A stretch of 16,554 nt of DNA from contig JAYENL010000038.1 of NCBI GenBank assembly GCA_034722055.1, positions 97,844 to 114,397 of the forward strand, in the 5' to 3' direction. Below the pieces are notes generated by a model. That model made no database searches, was not told where the DNA came from, and worked only from the letters and a program-made list of their open reading frames with translations. This document shows, piece by piece, positions 6,104 to 15,007 of this stretch. Source of the DNA: Armatimonadota bacterium. GTDB lineage: Bacteria > Armatimonadota > Zipacnadia > Zipacnadales > UBA5352. A program made the translations under genes and the position numbers. Positions within the stretch are counted from its first letter, which is position 1. Every line of letters begins with the position of its first letter.

Positions 6104-6172
6104 CCGTTCAGTGGCACGGACACTCCTGTCCGTGCGCCGTTCCCGTTGTCGGGCTGGAAGCCCGACCTACGC
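6104..6172 (+). repeat. 69-bp composite REP doublet, copy 1 (GTGG-REP on +, GTAG-REP on -)
   Basis: GTG-GCACGGACA-CTCC-TGTCCGTGC (9-bp stem, 6114-6135) followed by GTCGGGCT-GGA-AGCCCGAC-CTAC (8-bp stem, 6148-6170). 67/69 identical to 6316-6384. Confidence 0.9.
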
Positions 6173-6186
6173 GAGGGATGGAGCTG

Positions 6187-6224
6187 ACGGCGGGCCGGAC
6201 AGTGGTCCGGCCCCTCCATACGGC
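6187..6224 (-). repeat. GGAG-headed REP-like palindrome (38 bp), copy 1
   Basis: ACGGC-GGGCCGGAC-AGTG-GTCCGGCCC-CTCCATACGGC with a 9-bp stem. An identical 38-mer lies at 11884-11921. Confidence 0.9.
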
Positions 6225-6315: not shown

Positions 6316-6384
6316 CCGTTCAGTGGCACGGACACTCCTGTCCGTGCGCTGTTCCCATTGTCGGGCTGGAAGCCCGACCTACGC
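6316..6384 (+). repeat. 69-bp composite REP doublet, copy 2
   Basis: Direct repeat of 6104-6172 at an offset of 212 bp. The two mismatches are both in the linker between the hairpins. Confidence 0.9.
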
Positions 6385-6483
6385 CAGTGCATCGTTTCCC
6401 GGCTGTCCGAACGATGGACCACTCTCAGCAGTACTGTTTTCGGATCCCGCGCCCCGGTGTCTCCGGGGAGGAACAGACGCTGG

Positions 6484-10316: not shown

Positions 10317-10338
10317 TGCAGAGCACGGCCGCGTGGAA

Positions 10339-10531
10339 GCGTACCTTCACCCCATCGTGGTCAGCGGCGATTCGCCCCGTGTGTCGGTGGGAGAGGCCGC
10401 CTGACGCTCCAGGTCGTTTGCTGGAGCCGAAGCCGGCCCGGCCGTCGCTTCGCCTGTAGCCCGCGGGCCGACTTCGCGCGACTGCTGGGCAGTCGCCCTC
10501 AAGCGGCCCCTCCAGGCAAGCCACCCTCGCA
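10339..10531 (-). other. Structured repeat element (four-way junction; candidate ncRNA or REP-derived MITE), copy 1, core 10389-10514
   Basis: Inverted homolog of 11948-12156. Shares exact 26-nt (10420-10445 vs 12050-12075) and 18-nt (10463-10480 vs 11999-12016) blocks, and the four stems are conserved. Confidence 0.75.
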
Positions 10532-10565
10532 CCACCTATGGGGATCGCGTGGAGATCGCGCCCGT

Positions 10566-11651
10566 TCAGTCCCGCTCCAGCCACAGCTCAAAGGGCCGCG
10601 CGTCGGGAGGCGGCGTGAAGGGCAGCTCCACCTTTCGGCCCGTGCCCGCGGACTCGTAGGCGGCGAAGATGATCTCCATCACCGCCCTGCCGTCCTCGCC
10701 GGTCTCCAGGGGCTCCTCATCGTTCAGGATGCAGTCCACGAAGTGCTGCATCTCCTGCGGGAAGCCGTAGTTCCAGGACTCCTCGTACATCGTGAAGCTC
10801 CAGCCCCGCGTGGTGGCGGCCTTCTCCACCGCGTAGTCATAGCCGGTATCCGAGTAGGTCAAGAATGAGCTGCCCCGCAGCAGGTCCGCGAAGATGACGC
10901 CCTCGGAGCCGTAGATCTCCGCGCGGTCGTCCATCCCGCCCTTCTTGATCCAGGACTCCTCGGCGATGCCGCGGGCGCCGCCCTCGAACTCCACGATGAT
11001 GGTGGCGTTGTCATCTCCGCGGGTGCGATCCCCGCGCAGGTGCGTGTCCATGTCGGCGTAGACGCTCACCGCCCGCGGCTTGTCCAGCATCCAGCGGAAG
11101 AACTCGAAGCCGTGGCAGCCCATGTCCAGCGTCACGCCTCCGCCCGACAGCTCCAGGTCCCAGAACCAGTCCGCGTGGGGGCCATCGTGCTTCTCGCACT
11201 GCTTCAGCAGGTAGACCTCGCCGAGAGCCCCCGCATCCACAAGCTGCTTGGCCCGAACGTACTTGGGCGCGAAGCACAGCTCCTCCGCGTAGCAGAGCGT
11301 GACGCCGGCGTCAGCGCAGGCGCCAATCATCCGGTCCGCCTCCTCCATGGTGGTGCACAGCGGCTTCTCGCAGATGACGTGCTTGCCCGCGGACGCGGCA
11401 TCGCAGCAGGCCTGGCAGTGCAGGTAGTTCGGCAGGCCCAGCACCACGGCATCGACCTCCGGCAGCTCCAGCATCTCCCGGTAGTCCGTGAACCACCGGT
11501 CGATGCCGTGCCGCCCCGCGAACTCCCGCACATGCTCCTCCGTCGGCGATGCCACCGCGACGATCTCCGCGCTCGGTATGCGTGCGAAGGACTCCGCGTG
11601 TATCTCCGCCACGAACTGCGAGCCGATCATGCCGACGCCGAGTCTGTCCAT
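10566..11651 (-). CDS. Gfo/Idh/MocA family NAD(P)-dependent oxidoreductase, 361 aa
   Basis: GGAGGG RBS before ATG 11651 (MDRLGVGMIGSQFVAEIH, Rossmann start). Motifs DYREMLELPEVDAV, PNYLH, GKHVICEKP, SGGGVTLDMGCH and TGEDGRAVMEIIFAAYESA. Confidence 0.92.
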   Translation of the reverse strand: MDRLGVGMIGSQFVAEIHAESFARIPSAEIVAVASPTEEHVREFAGRHGIDRWFTDYREMLELPEVDAVVLGLPNYLHCQACCDAASAGKHVICEKPLCTTMEEADRMIGACADAGVTLCYAEELCFAPKYVRAKQLVDAGALGEVYLLKQCEKHDGPHADWFWDLELSGGGVTLDMGCHGFEFFRWMLDKPRAVSVYADMDTHLRGDRTRGDDNATIIVEFEGGARGIAEESWIKKGGMDDRAEIYGSEGVIFADLLRGSSFLTYSDTGYDYAVEKAATTRGWSFTMYEESWNYGFPQEMQHFVDCILNDEEPLETGEDGRAVMEIIFAAYESAGTGRKVELPFTPPPDARPFELWLERD

Positions 11652-11739
11652 ACTGCACCCTCCCTGCCCGTCCAGCTTCACACGTCGCGCGCTGGGAGCC
11701 TTCCCCACACTCGCGACGACTCCTGCCGATGCCCCAGCA

Positions 11740-11775
11740 ACGGCGGGCGGGCTGGGCAGCCCGCGGCTCCGTACG
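11740..11775 (-). repeat. Variant GGAG-type REP-like palindrome
   Basis: ACGGCGG-GCGGGCT-GGGC-AGCCCGC-GGCTCCGTACG. Its flanks (ACGGCGG..., CTCC.TACG) resemble the 6187/11884 REP, but the stem differs. Confidence 0.6.
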
Positions 11776-11832
11776 ACATGACTGCAAGGGCGGCCGACCC
11801 AACACCATTCATGGAACGAGAACGGCAACGAC

Positions 11833-11858
11833 GGGCGGGCAGGGAAGCCCGCCCCTCG
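11833..11858 (-). repeat. CGAG-headed REP-like palindrome
   Basis: GGGCGGGC-AGGGAA-GCCCGCCC-CTCG: 8-bp stem followed by the reverse complement of a CGAG head. Confidence 0.6.
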
Positions 11859-11947
11859 GAGACCTCCGGTCTCAACGGCATGAACGGCGGGCCGGACAGT
11901 GGTCCGGCCCCTCCATACGGCCTTACCTTTGGAGACCTTCGGTCTCA
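11858..11947. repeat. Two copies of the short hairpin GGAGACC-TYC-GGTCTCA (11858-11874 and 11931-11947)
   Basis: 6-bp stems GAGACC/GGTCTC with TCC or TTC loops, 16/17 identical, bracketing the 11884-11921 REP. Confidence 0.75.
11884..11921 (-). repeat. GGAG-headed REP-like palindrome (38 bp), copy 2
   Basis: 38/38 identical to 6187-6224, same orientation, 5.7 kb away. Confidence 0.9.
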
Positions 11948-12156
11948 TGCGGAGGGCTGTTGGCCGTGGAGGGGCCGTTTGCGGGCGCTTCTCAGGAGCG
12001 CGCGAAGTCGGCCCGCTGCACGCGAAGCAATCGGCGGCGTGGACGGCCAACGGCCGGGCCGGCTTCGGCTCCAGCGAACGATGCTGGAGGGTCAGACGGC
12101 CCCTCCAGACGGCACACATCGAATCGCCACTCGCCACGATGTGGGCGGAGGTAAGC
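11948..12156 (+). other. Structured repeat element (four-way junction; candidate ncRNA or REP-derived MITE), copy 2, core 11967-12107
   Basis: P1 11967-11981/12093-12107, P2 11985-11991/11995-12001, P3 12003-12015/12055-12067, P4 12069-12075/12083-12089. Homologous to 10339-10531 in inverted orientation. Confidence 0.75.
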
Positions 12157-12277
12157 CGTACGACGTCACTGCAATGGATCACCGCAACAGCCGGGGCGCA
12201 GAGGTCTTGCGCCGCTTGCACGCGAAACCGGCTGCGCCGGCCTGACATCGGATGGCGCACAGGAGGAGGACAACAGC

Positions 12278-15007
12278 GTGCCGAGCTACCGGCGATGGCT
12301 TGTTGCTCTCGCGCTCGGTACCGTCTGCGCGACCATGAGCGGCGCACAGATGACTCACCCGCTGATGCCGGGCGTCCGCTGCCAGGATGTGTGGGACCCC
12401 GACTGGCCGCGGGTGCTGCACGACCGCCAGCTCACGGGCTTCTCCCCGCTCGTCCTGGGGATGGAGGAGGCGCCGGAGGTCTGGGCCACCATCGAGGTGG
12501 GAGGCGAGCTGTCCTGGGTCAGGCAGGTACGGGCGGCCGACGGCACTGATCTGCTGCTGGTGAATGACGGCCGCCTGCGCCTGGTGACCATGGAGGGTAA
12601 GGTGCTCTGGACCGGCGCCGACTCCGGCTCGCTGGCCTTCTTCGGCGACCTCCGCGGCGACGGCCGCGATTACGTGGTGCTGACGGCGGGCGCGCGGCTG
12701 TCGGTGCTCGACGCGGCCACGGGAGAGCTCTACTGGCGGCACGCCTTCGAGCCGCCACACGTCTACCTGCGATGCCAGGTCGGCGACGTGCTGCCGGACA
12801 CGCCCGGCATGGAGGCGGCGGTCTTCCAGCAGTACGGCCAGGAGGGCTGCCTGATAAGCTTCCCTCCCGATGCAGAGCCGCGGTTCGTCTGGCGCCGCAC
12901 CGTGGTGGAGCCGGGCGAGCACCCCGAGCGGGCAGACCACGGCTGTGACATCCGCCTGGACCTGCGCGTCCCCGGCGAGCCGGTGATCTGGAACGTGAGG
13001 CATCATCGGTGCCGGGGATTCGAAGCACGCACCGGGGAGACGATCAGCTCCCTGGTCTACGACATCGGCGGCGCTCACCGGCGGAACTACGGCCCGTGGG
13101 CGCTGGGGACGGCGCGCGACGGTCGGCCCATCATCTGCGTCGCGGGCGAGGCCATCCAGCAGCACGTGCACGGGATCATCCTCAACCGCGACGGGCCCTC
13201 GGACCTGGCGTGGCAGCACTACTACGGTGAGGTCTACCAGACGCCCGGCGTCGCCCTGGAGTGCATCAGCATCAGCGACATCGATGCCGATGGCGCCACT
13301 GAGATCCTCTACAACGTGCGCGATCCCGAACATGAGTTTCGCCCATTCGTGCGGGTGCGGGACGGGAGCACGGGCGAGGTCGAGATCGAGCTGCGCGACT
13401 GCGTCTGCGAGGGCCTCTGCCCGGCAGTCGGAGGGGAGAGCGGCGGCGGGCTGATCGTCCGCCGCCTCTCGGGTGAGGGCGAAGCGCGGCTCGAGGTCCA
13501 TCGCATTGCCGGCTCCGGCAGCGTCGAACGCATCGCGGGCTTCGACGCCGCGCGTCTCTACGGCGTGGTCGCAGCTACGGACGCCGGGCCGGGAGAGCTG
13601 CTTCTGCTGCATGGTGACGAAGAGGGACCGGAGCTCGTCCGCTACCGGCTCGTGGAGGATGGTCTTGAGCAGGTCGCGGCGACCCGGGAGCGAGTCCTCA
13701 CTGAGGCGGACATTCGCCTGGCGATTGGGCGCGAGGGCCAGCCGCTGCGGATGCTGGTGACCGGCGCATCGGGGAGTCTGGAGGCGGTCGATTGGCCGGG
13801 CGCGGTGCAGTGGAGCCTGCCGCTGGCGGGCGGCCGGCCGGCATCGCTGTCGGCGGCCGACCTCACCGGCGACGGCCGCGCCGAGCTCATCGCCGCCGTC
13901 CCCGGCGACGCCGTGTGCATCTACTCGCTCAGCGACTCCGGGGACTCCCGGGTGCTGGCGGAGCACGAGTTCGAGGCTCCCAGAGGTCGCCTGGGGCCGC
14001 TGCTGTATGACCTGGAGGGCGACGGGAGGCTGTGCCTGATCGCGCCTGGACGCACCCCCACCGGCAGGCTGTGCATCAGGGCCTGGCGCGCGGACCACAC
14101 GCTGCTGTGGAAGAGCGTCCTCGAGGACCTGCCCGCCAGCGAGGACATCGAGGTCGTGGCCTGGAACGCAGGCGAGTTCCTCCCCGGGCCCAGGGCCGGC
14201 GTGGCCATCTCAGTGGCGAGCCCGGACCGAACGGTGGAGGGGACCTTCCTTCTGGACGGGCGAGACGGCACCGTCCTGTGGTTCCGCGATCTCTATCACA
14301 ACCAGGGGCGATGGCGCGGAGTCCGGCCCATCGGCATCCCCGGGGCCTTCGACATCGACGGCGACGGCGTCGAAGAGGTCCTCATGGACATGTACAGCTA
14401 CATGGCATTCCTGCGCGGCGAGGACGGGAGCTTCGCCCGCATTCACCACACTGCCAACATCACGGCTGAGGACTCGCTCTACGCCGCGCTGCTCTACAAC
14501 AGCTACTGCCCGGTCTACCGATCGCCCGACGCCACCGAGCCGCACTGGTTCGTGCCGCTGGGCCACGGCCGCTTCGGGCTGATGAAGCCCGACCCGGCGG
14601 AGGGCATCTGGCGCGAGGTCGCGGGCTACGACGTTCCGGACAAGGCCGGGCTGATTGACGTGGACGGTGACGGCTCGCTGGAGGCCGGCTATTCCCTGCG
14701 CAACAGCCGGACATTCGTCTGCCGGGACCTATGGAGCGGGGAGGTGGAGTGGGAGCTGGAGCTTCCCTCGCCGCCCGCCGGACCGGTCCTGTGCGCCGAT
14801 GTTGACGGCGACGGCAGGGGGGAGTTCCTGGTCGGGCCCTTCTGCATCGGCACCAACGAGGACGGGGCCGGCGAGGTCCGCTGGCAGGCGCCGCTGTGGC
14901 TGAGCTGGGCCGTCATCGCGGACTTCGACGGCTGCGGCCAAGGAGAGATCGCGACCGCCACCAGCGGCAGGATCCTCGTGCTCAAGGCCCGGACACAAGA
15001 GCAGTAG
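12278..15007 (+). CDS. Secreted FG-GAP/VCBS-repeat beta-propeller protein, 909 aa
   Basis: AGGAGGAGGA RBS at 12261-12270, GTG start and a signal peptide (MPSYRRWLVALALGTVCATMSGA). About eight DxDGDG-type Ca-binding loops (DLRGDGRD, DIDADGATE, DLTGDGRAE, DLEGDGRL, DIDGDGVEE, DVDGDGSLE, DVDGDGRGE, DFDGCGQGE) plus PQQ-like LDAATGELYW and LDGRDGTVLW blades. Confidence 0.85.
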   Translation: MPSYRRWLVALALGTVCATMSGAQMTHPLMPGVRCQDVWDPDWPRVLHDRQLTGFSPLVLGMEEAPEVWATIEVGGELSWVRQVRAADGTDLLLVNDGRLRLVTMEGKVLWTGADSGSLAFFGDLRGDGRDYVVLTAGARLSVLDAATGELYWRHAFEPPHVYLRCQVGDVLPDTPGMEAAVFQQYGQEGCLISFPPDAEPRFVWRRTVVEPGEHPERADHGCDIRLDLRVPGEPVIWNVRHHRCRGFEARTGETISSLVYDIGGAHRRNYGPWALGTARDGRPIICVAGEAIQQHVHGIILNRDGPSDLAWQHYYGEVYQTPGVALECISISDIDADGATEILYNVRDPEHEFRPFVRVRDGSTGEVEIELRDCVCEGLCPAVGGESGGGLIVRRLSGEGEARLEVHRIAGSGSVERIAGFDAARLYGVVAATDAGPGELLLLHGDEEGPELVRYRLVEDGLEQVAATRERVLTEADIRLAIGREGQPLRMLVTGASGSLEAVDWPGAVQWSLPLAGGRPASLSAADLTGDGRAELIAAVPGDAVCIYSLSDSGDSRVLAEHEFEAPRGRLGPLLYDLEGDGRLCLIAPGRTPTGRLCIRAWRADHTLLWKSVLEDLPASEDIEVVAWNAGEFLPGPRAGVAISVASPDRTVEGTFLLDGRDGTVLWFRDLYHNQGRWRGVRPIGIPGAFDIDGDGVEEVLMDMYSYMAFLRGEDGSFARIHHTANITAEDSLYAALLYNSYCPVYRSPDATEPHWFVPLGHGRFGLMKPDPAEGIWREVAGYDVPDKAGLIDVDGDGSLEAGYSLRNSRTFVCRDLWSGEVEWELELPSPPAGPVLCADVDGDGRGEFLVGPFCIGTNEDGAGEVRWQAPLWLSWAVIADFDGCGQGEIATATSGRILVLKARTQEQ

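Follow-up and report, generated by a model that had tools for sequence, protein, structure and literature searches.

Does an intergenic sequence that recurs within a genome and folds each time into the same four-way junction encode a structured RNA, or is it mobile DNA? The question arises from a stretch of 16,554 nucleotides of an Armatimonadota bacterium (GenBank assembly GCA_034722055.1, contig JAYENL010000038.1, positions 97,844 to 114,397 of the forward strand), hereafter the window. A first-pass annotation, made from the sequence alone, had pointed to two copies of a non-coding element in this window, on opposite strands, of different sequence but with the same stems P1 to P4, and had proposed a novel structured RNA or a single-stranded mobile element. 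We conclude, with a probability of about 0.88, that both copies are non-coding miniature inverted-repeat transposable elements (MITEs) with the ends of IS50-type insertion sequences (IS), each enclosing a doublet of repetitive extragenic palindromes (REPs), such that two known systems are nested in one element. The parts of the two copies are the following, where RAYT stands for REP-associated tyrosine transposase.

11922..12155, plus strand: MITE copy 2, 234 nt; a head-to-head REP doublet enclosed by the IS50-type ends CTTACC...GGTAAG
11968..12014, plus strand: REP monomer A of copy 2, with GGAG foot and GGGCCG stem; its inner hairpin is P2
12056..12106, minus strand: REP monomer B of copy 2, inverted; its inner hairpin is P4
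11913..11921, plus strand: left 9-bp target duplication of copy 2, CCATACGGC, 7/9 identical to 12156-12164
12156..12164, plus strand: right 9-bp target duplication of copy 2, CCGTACGAC, pairing with 11913-11921
11889..11914, minus strand: target REP, of another GGAG-footed hairpin family with 88 copies in the genome; the same type flanks the RAYT gene on contig C256
10340..10546, minus strand: MITE copy 1, 207 nt, an older insertion whose ends have eroded, flanked by the convergent beta-helix and Gfo genes
10465..10513, minus strand: REP monomer A of copy 1, from the repeat scan
10390..10439, plus strand: REP monomer B of copy 1, inverted, from the repeat scan
10331..10339, plus strand: 9-bp near-duplication at copy 1, GCGTGGAAG, 7/9 identical to 10547-10555
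10547..10555, plus strand: 9-bp near-duplication on the other side of copy 1, GCGTGGAGA, pairing with 10331-10339

The conserved unit is a REP hairpin

Both copies lie where the first-pass annotation had placed them, with the inverted pairs recovered there, and align at 73% identity over 209 columns. What had been described as a duplication of two is a family with 123 merged BLAST loci in the genome that holds the window (G000; 6.1 Mb in 330 contigs, 92.7% complete). The 5' half of the junction is the same motif as the reverse complement of its 3' half. This monomer of about 50 nt consists, in order, of GGAG (the foot), GGGCCG, a position x of 1-2 nt, CTGA, an inner hairpin, CGAAG, a position z of 1 nt, and CGGCCC. 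A looser first regular expression gave 229 matches against 33 in one shuffle; we used instead a strict pattern that leaves out the GGAG foot, and identified 179 monomers in G000, with 0 and 0 in two shuffled genomes.

The foot is present at 167/179 monomers, though it was outside the search pattern, and conservation falls right upstream of it. It is unpaired in the monomer folds. GTGG or GTAG, the two forms of the canonical GT[AG]G foot, directly precede a minority of the monomers. Pair statistics were taken over 177 monomers. Each position of the 6-bp foot stem keeps the same pair in 163-176 of them, and the tandem mismatch that follows x/z and the CT/AG pairs (G·A in 173/177 and A·G in 175/177) exists on the GGAG strand only. 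Positions x and z form a pyrimidine-type mismatch in all 177. The inner hairpin occurs in 101 distinct sequences, of which 89 keep at least 5 pairs, compared to 5.8% of shuffles. Called genes contain just two of the 177 monomers. We rejected a CGTC-tagged REP family, since the conserved letters are GGAG and the upstream CGT is loosely kept.

The monomers often come in pairs: there are 54 close pairs, 50 of them head to head, with the two monomers of one doublet on opposite strands. They partner with many different monomers, tail-to-tail pairs included, and 76/179 have no close partner. Hence, the selected structure is each REP hairpin of about 50 nt on its own strand, and the single-strand signature noticed earlier is real but belongs to the monomer. 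Among 67 genomes of the order, the exact monomer pattern was found in 12, all of one family, with 29 copies in G017. We also observed, in G000, tandem arrays in which a MITE and its target REP follow each other head to tail (C47:1-533), and arrays of alternating monomers resembling bacterial interspersed mosaic elements, or BIMEs (C299:58-420 and C12:15415-15590).

RAYT genes are flanked by their own REP types

G000 has six Y1_Tnp genes (on contigs C61, C193, C100, C256, C30, and C324), each flanked by its own hairpin family. The gene on C100 has copies of the monomer family described above on both sides. Its product scores 77.3 bits against NF047646 (REP_Tyr_transpos), for which the cut-off is 80, while a paralogue in the same genome scores 94. 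The best PDB match of its clade is E. coli TnpA-REP (4ER8), and the HxH, W, and YxxxNP motifs are invariant across 25 homologues. The closest homologue of the C100 protein in the 67 genomes, on contig C249 of G017, is 59% identical, is its sister at 100/98 support, and is encoded by a gene bracketed by exactly the C100-type monomer, with the feet pointing outward.

This arrangement extends across the order. A GGAG-type foot lies near the RAYT gene on one side at 28 of 30 loci and on both sides at 23, compared to 756/3753 and 56/3753, respectively, for the called genes of G000. A looser version of the test gave 34/35 loci against 23/102 control tiles, and the strict count was used instead. Judged by eye, the REP type tracks the RAYT subclade. 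The REP types of five of the six RAYT genes of G000 share a GGAGGGGC(C/T)G foot. We also observed that the C100 RAYT frame (L003:1414-2433) is open upstream, through a REP doublet, into the frame of the preceding gene (422 codons from stop to stop). This unit of RAYT gene and REPs, or REPtron, may thus have been inserted into that gene.

The doublets travel in a MITE shell

The annotation had noted homology of about 50 nt continuing 3' of the junction. It is real: the homologous letters make up a MITE's right arm with its terminal inverted repeat. Copy 2 matches the end sequence of an autonomous IS (see below) at both termini, with internal changes, and its variant left end holds a small additional hairpin (around 11932-11947). 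We found 36 pairs of such CTTAC ends in G000, of which 17 are less than 400 nt apart, with a REP foot and full flanks. A 9-bp duplication (at least 7/9 identity) surrounds 10 of these 17 elements, compared to 0.086 in a cross-locus null; other duplication lengths (6-8 and 10-12 bp) gave no signal apart from two 10-bp cases and one 8-bp case. The terminal C of the CTTAC end is part of the element, outside the duplication.

We then used a looser catalogue of 59 head-to-head doublets in G000. At least one CTTAC-type end accompanies 28 of them (chance is 7% per flank), 13 have a second end type, and 18 have neither. The second type, (G/T)GCAGCATC..., is unrelated to CTTAC and has a 9-bp duplication in 11/14 elements (null 0.000). 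It encloses unrelated interiors in G006, G014, and G072. Neither 38 metagenome matches nor 30 loci, drawn from 79 genomes of the class, contained its autonomous partner. Elements of this second MITE family, with ends (G/T)GCAGCATCCAGATTC, occur at C10:5717-5988 of G000 and at 13 similar loci, with the same kind of REP doublet and 9-bp duplications; 65 such ends were counted in G007.

The 16-nt end of the CTTAC family is identical to the ends of a 1,465-bp IS of an uncultured Alphaproteobacterium (CAVPVB01, L146:1801-3265). This IS is present in multiple copies, makes 10-bp duplications, and encodes a transposase of 466 aa with the Pfam domains Tnp_DNA_bind and DDE_Tnp_1 and with the Tn5 transposase as best PDB match. 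A scan of public genomes revealed the same 16-nt end in two Ca. Zipacnadia records, and MITEs with CTTAC ends but without these REPs in their interiors in records of Chloroflexota and Parabeggiatoa, where they often hold local palindromic repeats. In four related genomes (G009, G013, G015, and G017), the CTTAC shell encloses doublets of other GGAG-REP types between similar linkers. One query was used to search for IS50-like transposases, and gave matches in 3 of 18 genomes of the family but not in G000. The ends of IS66, which we take to be GTAAG, were rejected as a model because the end orientation is reversed.

Could RAYT alone move the whole unit of 210-280 nt as a long REPIN (REP doublet forming hairpin), the end repeats and 9-bp duplications being products of its chemistry? 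Two unrelated end types wrap the same kind of doublet, both with 9-bp duplications, a search of G000 gave no autonomous IS bearing one or the other, and the CTTAC ends start with the dinucleotide CT, at which E. coli TnpA-REP cleaves (PMC8266576; this and the other papers are cited from the part of their text that was available). However, the CTTAC end is letter-identical to that of the Tn5-like IS and is found on the REP-free MITEs just mentioned, and the second end type surrounds interiors other than REP doublets. The position of the terminal C, within the element and outside the duplication, led us to reject RAYT cutting at CT as the origin of the ends. Target duplication is also not known for HUH transposases of this family. 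All in all, movement by RAYT alone seems improbable to us, and we retain the MITE with a REP doublet as its cargo.

Insertions favour a fixed distance from GGAG feet

The REP at 11889-11914 is the target of copy 2, whose insertion point is 7 nt 5' of the GGAG foot; the duplication therefore ends within that foot. The same register recurs in the genome. A GGAG foot lies just outside 25 of 57 CTTAC-type ends in G000, at offset 7 in 17 cases and at offset 6 in 5; the foot can show at just one end per element. Against this stand a background of 0.4% and a count of 0/35 for the second end type. In relatives, 10 of 34 CTTAC-type ends (some of which are chance matches) have the foot at offset 7-8, including those of two autonomous IS50-like elements. 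These numbers show a preference for insertion 6-7 nt upstream of GGAG feet, and such a register in an IS50-group transposase may be of interest for the study of transposase targeting.

Empty sites reveal past movement

The genes around copy 1 are 249 nt apart in the window and 10 nt apart in a genome of the same genus (G001, with genes about 90% identical to those of G000), where copy 1 is absent. At eight further orthologous sites, the doublet is missing in G001 at seven. Synteny with G001 ends upstream of the Gfo gene, on the side of copy 2. An empty allele was also found in a brine metagenome: in contigs from two of the four runs of one study (X2 and X4), whose samples may be those from which the genome came, position 10332 is joined to position 10560 with 11 letters between them. 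These contigs are 216 nt shorter than the window, i.e., by the 207 nt of copy 1 plus one 9-bp duplication. The 9 bp at the empty allele match the duplication of the window at 6/9 positions, which indicates the empty allele of a related strain rather than a fresh excision. The family offers a clean case of REP doublets moving as the cargo of a DDE-type MITE, with target duplications and empty alleles.

The four-way junction is a by-product of the doublet

On the strand chosen in the first-pass annotation, the junction of P1 to P4 is the minimum-energy structure of both copies, with the stems as described there. The z-scores of the two copies are -5.49 and -5.20 as RNA and -5.38 and -4.59 as DNA, compared to -3.5 to -2.6 for the opposite strands. 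For the whole of copy 2, the minimum-energy fold in the DNA ensemble is again the junction, while the centroid retains monomer A's own hairpin. The stems follow from the composition of the element: in P1 and P3, monomer A pairs with the complement of monomer B, and P2 and P4 are the inner stems of the monomers themselves. A doublet folds into a junction because its outer parts are near-identical and its inner hairpins differ. In other words, the four-way junction is a by-product of a head-to-head REP pair and not the selected unit.

To describe the pairing we took the 49 head-to-head doublets of the strict scan; copy 2 was excluded as too diverged. They were oriented by a single letter of P3, and only the count of mixed wobbles is independent of this choice. 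An RNAalifold alignment of 11 doublets recovered the junction, and all seven pairs with double-sided changes fall in P2 or P4; no compensatory change in P1 or P3 was found across the alignment. The covariation claimed for the element thus exists within the inner stems and is lacking in those that join the two monomers. P1 has a bulge in 15/49 doublets, with a total of 19 A·C against 11 G·T, and x is equal in 13/49, so that P1 is usually broken at this position. The strand bias towards G-U was correctly read from the two window copies, which both carry changes removing the C·A usual in P1, but it does not extend to the family, where G·T and A·C occur together on one strand in 21/49 doublets. 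Similarly, the placement on the sense strand of neighbouring genes holds at 7:0 in a strict set of tandem genes (7 cases) and loosens in larger sets, with 6:2 for MITE right ends and 18:8 (p 0.076) and 9:12 for two monomer types; these counts rest on our own rough gene calls.

A novel structured RNA or ribozyme, transcribed from many loci and with the junction as its conserved fold, would account for the stable structure on one strand (z about -5) and for the 7:0 orientation, and an action at the RNA level has been proposed for doublets of other species (PMC3733652, in part). Yet a scan of the whole window against Rfam up to an E-value of 5 found nothing in the region, and gave a single chance match elsewhere in the window. 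The unpaired x positions, the absence of double-sided change in P1 and P3, the many monomers without a neighbour or with varied, even tail-to-tail, partners, and the orthologous sites without copies in the same genus also speak against it, and we regard it as very improbable. A hammerhead was rejected: CTGAG...CGAAG superficially resembles the core of its consensus, but lacks the GAAA. Intrinsic terminators or mRNA-stabilizing hairpins of local origin are close to negligible as an explanation, for although copy 1 lies between convergent genes and mRNA stabilization by REPs has been described (PMC3184786, in part), the family is dispersed, with target duplications and with empty sites that refute a local origin, and the doublets (6 convergent, 10 divergent, and 17 tandem) are not concentrated between convergent genes.

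A secondary effect at the RNA level may nevertheless exist for some copies. What stands of the original proposal is, in spirit, mobile DNA with a selected single-strand structure, whereas the novel four-way-junction RNA does not. The annotation had named observations that would tell against it, and these are borne out in part, in that many further copies exist and their P1 is broken with no compensatory change. The analysis removes a high-scoring RNA candidate and illustrates a trap for fold-based scans, in which two inverted hairpins that share their outer arms but not their inner stems mimic a covarying four-way junction.

A model with two nested layers

From these observations we infer which enzyme acts where, and in what sequence shell and doublet may have been joined. 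In the first layer, the REP hairpin would be the type of substrate used by a domesticated HUH tyrosine transposase (RAYT/TnpA-REP). The gene for this enzyme is found on a different contig, between copies of the hairpin, and by analogy with the literature on E. coli and others the enzyme would recognize the hairpin on one DNA strand. Two head-to-head monomers make a REPIN- or BIME-like doublet and, by construction, the junction. In the second layer, this doublet sits inside a non-coding shell with inverted repeats of the IS50 group of the IS4 family, which a DDE transposase, suggested by the identity of the ends, would move in trans by cut-and-paste with a 9-bp duplication. The preferred target of this transposase would be 7 nt 5' of GGAG feet in resident REPs. 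Such targeting would keep insertions intergenic and build mosaics of REPs and MITEs such as 11737-12164, with effects on neighbouring mRNAs, if any, being secondary.

Several points weigh against this model. The autonomous IS with identical ends is alphaproteobacterial, and the IS50-like ends found in the same family are related, not identical. The single query did not find an IS50-like transposase in G000, whose assembly is fragmented and incomplete, and none of the four DDE_Tnp_1 genes of this genome has CTTAC-type ends. The left end of copy 1 is eroded and does not match the inverted repeat, and at one of the eight orthologous sites G001 does hold a doublet, although a different one. The C100 RAYT is just under the NCBIfam cut-off, one of the monomers flanking it is a variant (CTGCAG...), and the pairing of RAYTs with cognate REPs is a putative one, drawn from neighbourhood and tree rather than from activity. 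Finally, there is the weak tendency towards the sense strand (7:0 in the strict set and 18:8 in a larger one), and the predictions give the doublet a lower energy as a junction, which probably forms when the stretch is single-stranded.

A bolder version, which we find tentative and on balance unlikely, would join the two enzymes. The IS50-group transposase would read GGAG-footed REPs, either directly or through a bound RAYT, and cut at a fixed register in the foot, while RAYT would exchange the REP bodies in the shell by strand transfer; the junction, which buries both feet in P1, would be an off state that limits cutting by RAYT. If so, the shell would carry the local REP type of each genome, and transposition of the MITE would spread RAYT substrates.

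Relation to known systems

REPs, their head-to-head dimers, and RAYTs have been described before (PMC3733652, PMC6006769, PMC8266576, PMC4690160, and PMC3116915, each in part). The monomers found here resemble the REP/BIME/REPIN-RAYT systems of E. coli (REPtron, PDB 4ER8) and P. fluorescens SBW25 in being intergenic hairpins of 20-50 nt with hundreds of copies, with an unpaired tetranucleotide foot at the 5' side, conserved stem mismatches, and head-to-head doublets, and in the single-copy HUH-Y1 gene with these hairpins on either side. They differ in the foot, which is GGAG and not GT[AG]G. At least two rows of Table S1 of PMC6006769 (part available) have REP feet that start with GGAG, among 32 of the 61 GGAG matches. 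Judged from the letters, the GGAG foot may derive from the GTRG-GA-stem type of subclass 2.5, which holds the same ones. While REPINs fold into one rod, the hypervariable inner hairpin gives here a four-way junction; long-hairpin and clover folds of REP doublets have already been proposed (PMC3116915, in part). A further difference is that most doublets here are within MITE shells.

The shell resembles the IS50 subgroup of the IS4 family (Tn5) in terminal repeats that start with CT (5'-NT ends) and in a duplication of 9-10 bp (PMC2266710, in part). Like DDE-derived MITEs, it is non-coding, 200-280 nt long, and has the ends of an IS with a single YREK-type DDE transposase (PMC2266710 and PMC3184786, in the available sections). 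By contrast with both, it encloses a REP doublet, and from genome to genome the body of the doublet changes while the linkers of the shell stay alike. Where the target preference of Tn5 is loose, that of the shell is strong and directed to a set position before GGAG feet. A constant insertion point in a REP is known for IS1397, IS621, ISPpu9/10, ISPa11, ISPsy8, and ISRm22, the last being one case from the IS4 family (PMC1525189 and PMC3184786, in part). Unlike these, the IS50-group element and MITE insert just outside the hairpin and leave one REP intact.

We found no description of this REP family or of an IS50 MITE with a REP doublet in the literature searched, which did not extend to ISfinder or to most subscription journals. 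Specific to this case are the IS50-group shell, the targeting of GGAG feet at a fixed register, and the apparent exchange of REP bodies within a shared shell. The mechanism by which REPs spread is described as still to be elucidated (PMC8266576, in the available text).

Other features of the window

Two called genes flank the elements and lie outside them.

10566..11651, minus strand: Gfo/Idh/MocA-type oxidoreductase gene (gene call)
12278..15007, plus strand: FG-GAP repeat protein gene (gene call)

The intergenic stretch upstream of and including copy 2 (11737-12164) is a mosaic of REPs and MITEs. Two degenerate hairpin repeats lie at 11737-11769 and 11825-11875, together with a small GAGACC/GGTCTC hairpin that resembles the one in the left end of copy 2. 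An identical stretch of 38 nt, with a GGAG-footed REP of the type found at the C256 RAYT gene (88 copies in the genome), occurs at 6187-6224 and at 11884-11921. Nearby, a GTGG-footed REP and a minus-strand GTAG-footed REP form a composite that occurs twice, at 6104-6175 and 6316-6387. The former has 86 copies in the genome and is of the type that flanks the RAYT gene on C324 of G000, while the latter has 101 copies. At the start of the window, hairpin repeats at 7-58 and 156-207 form an inverted pair with arms 81% complementary; the first has its GGAG-type foot on the minus strand, and the pair is probably another REP doublet.

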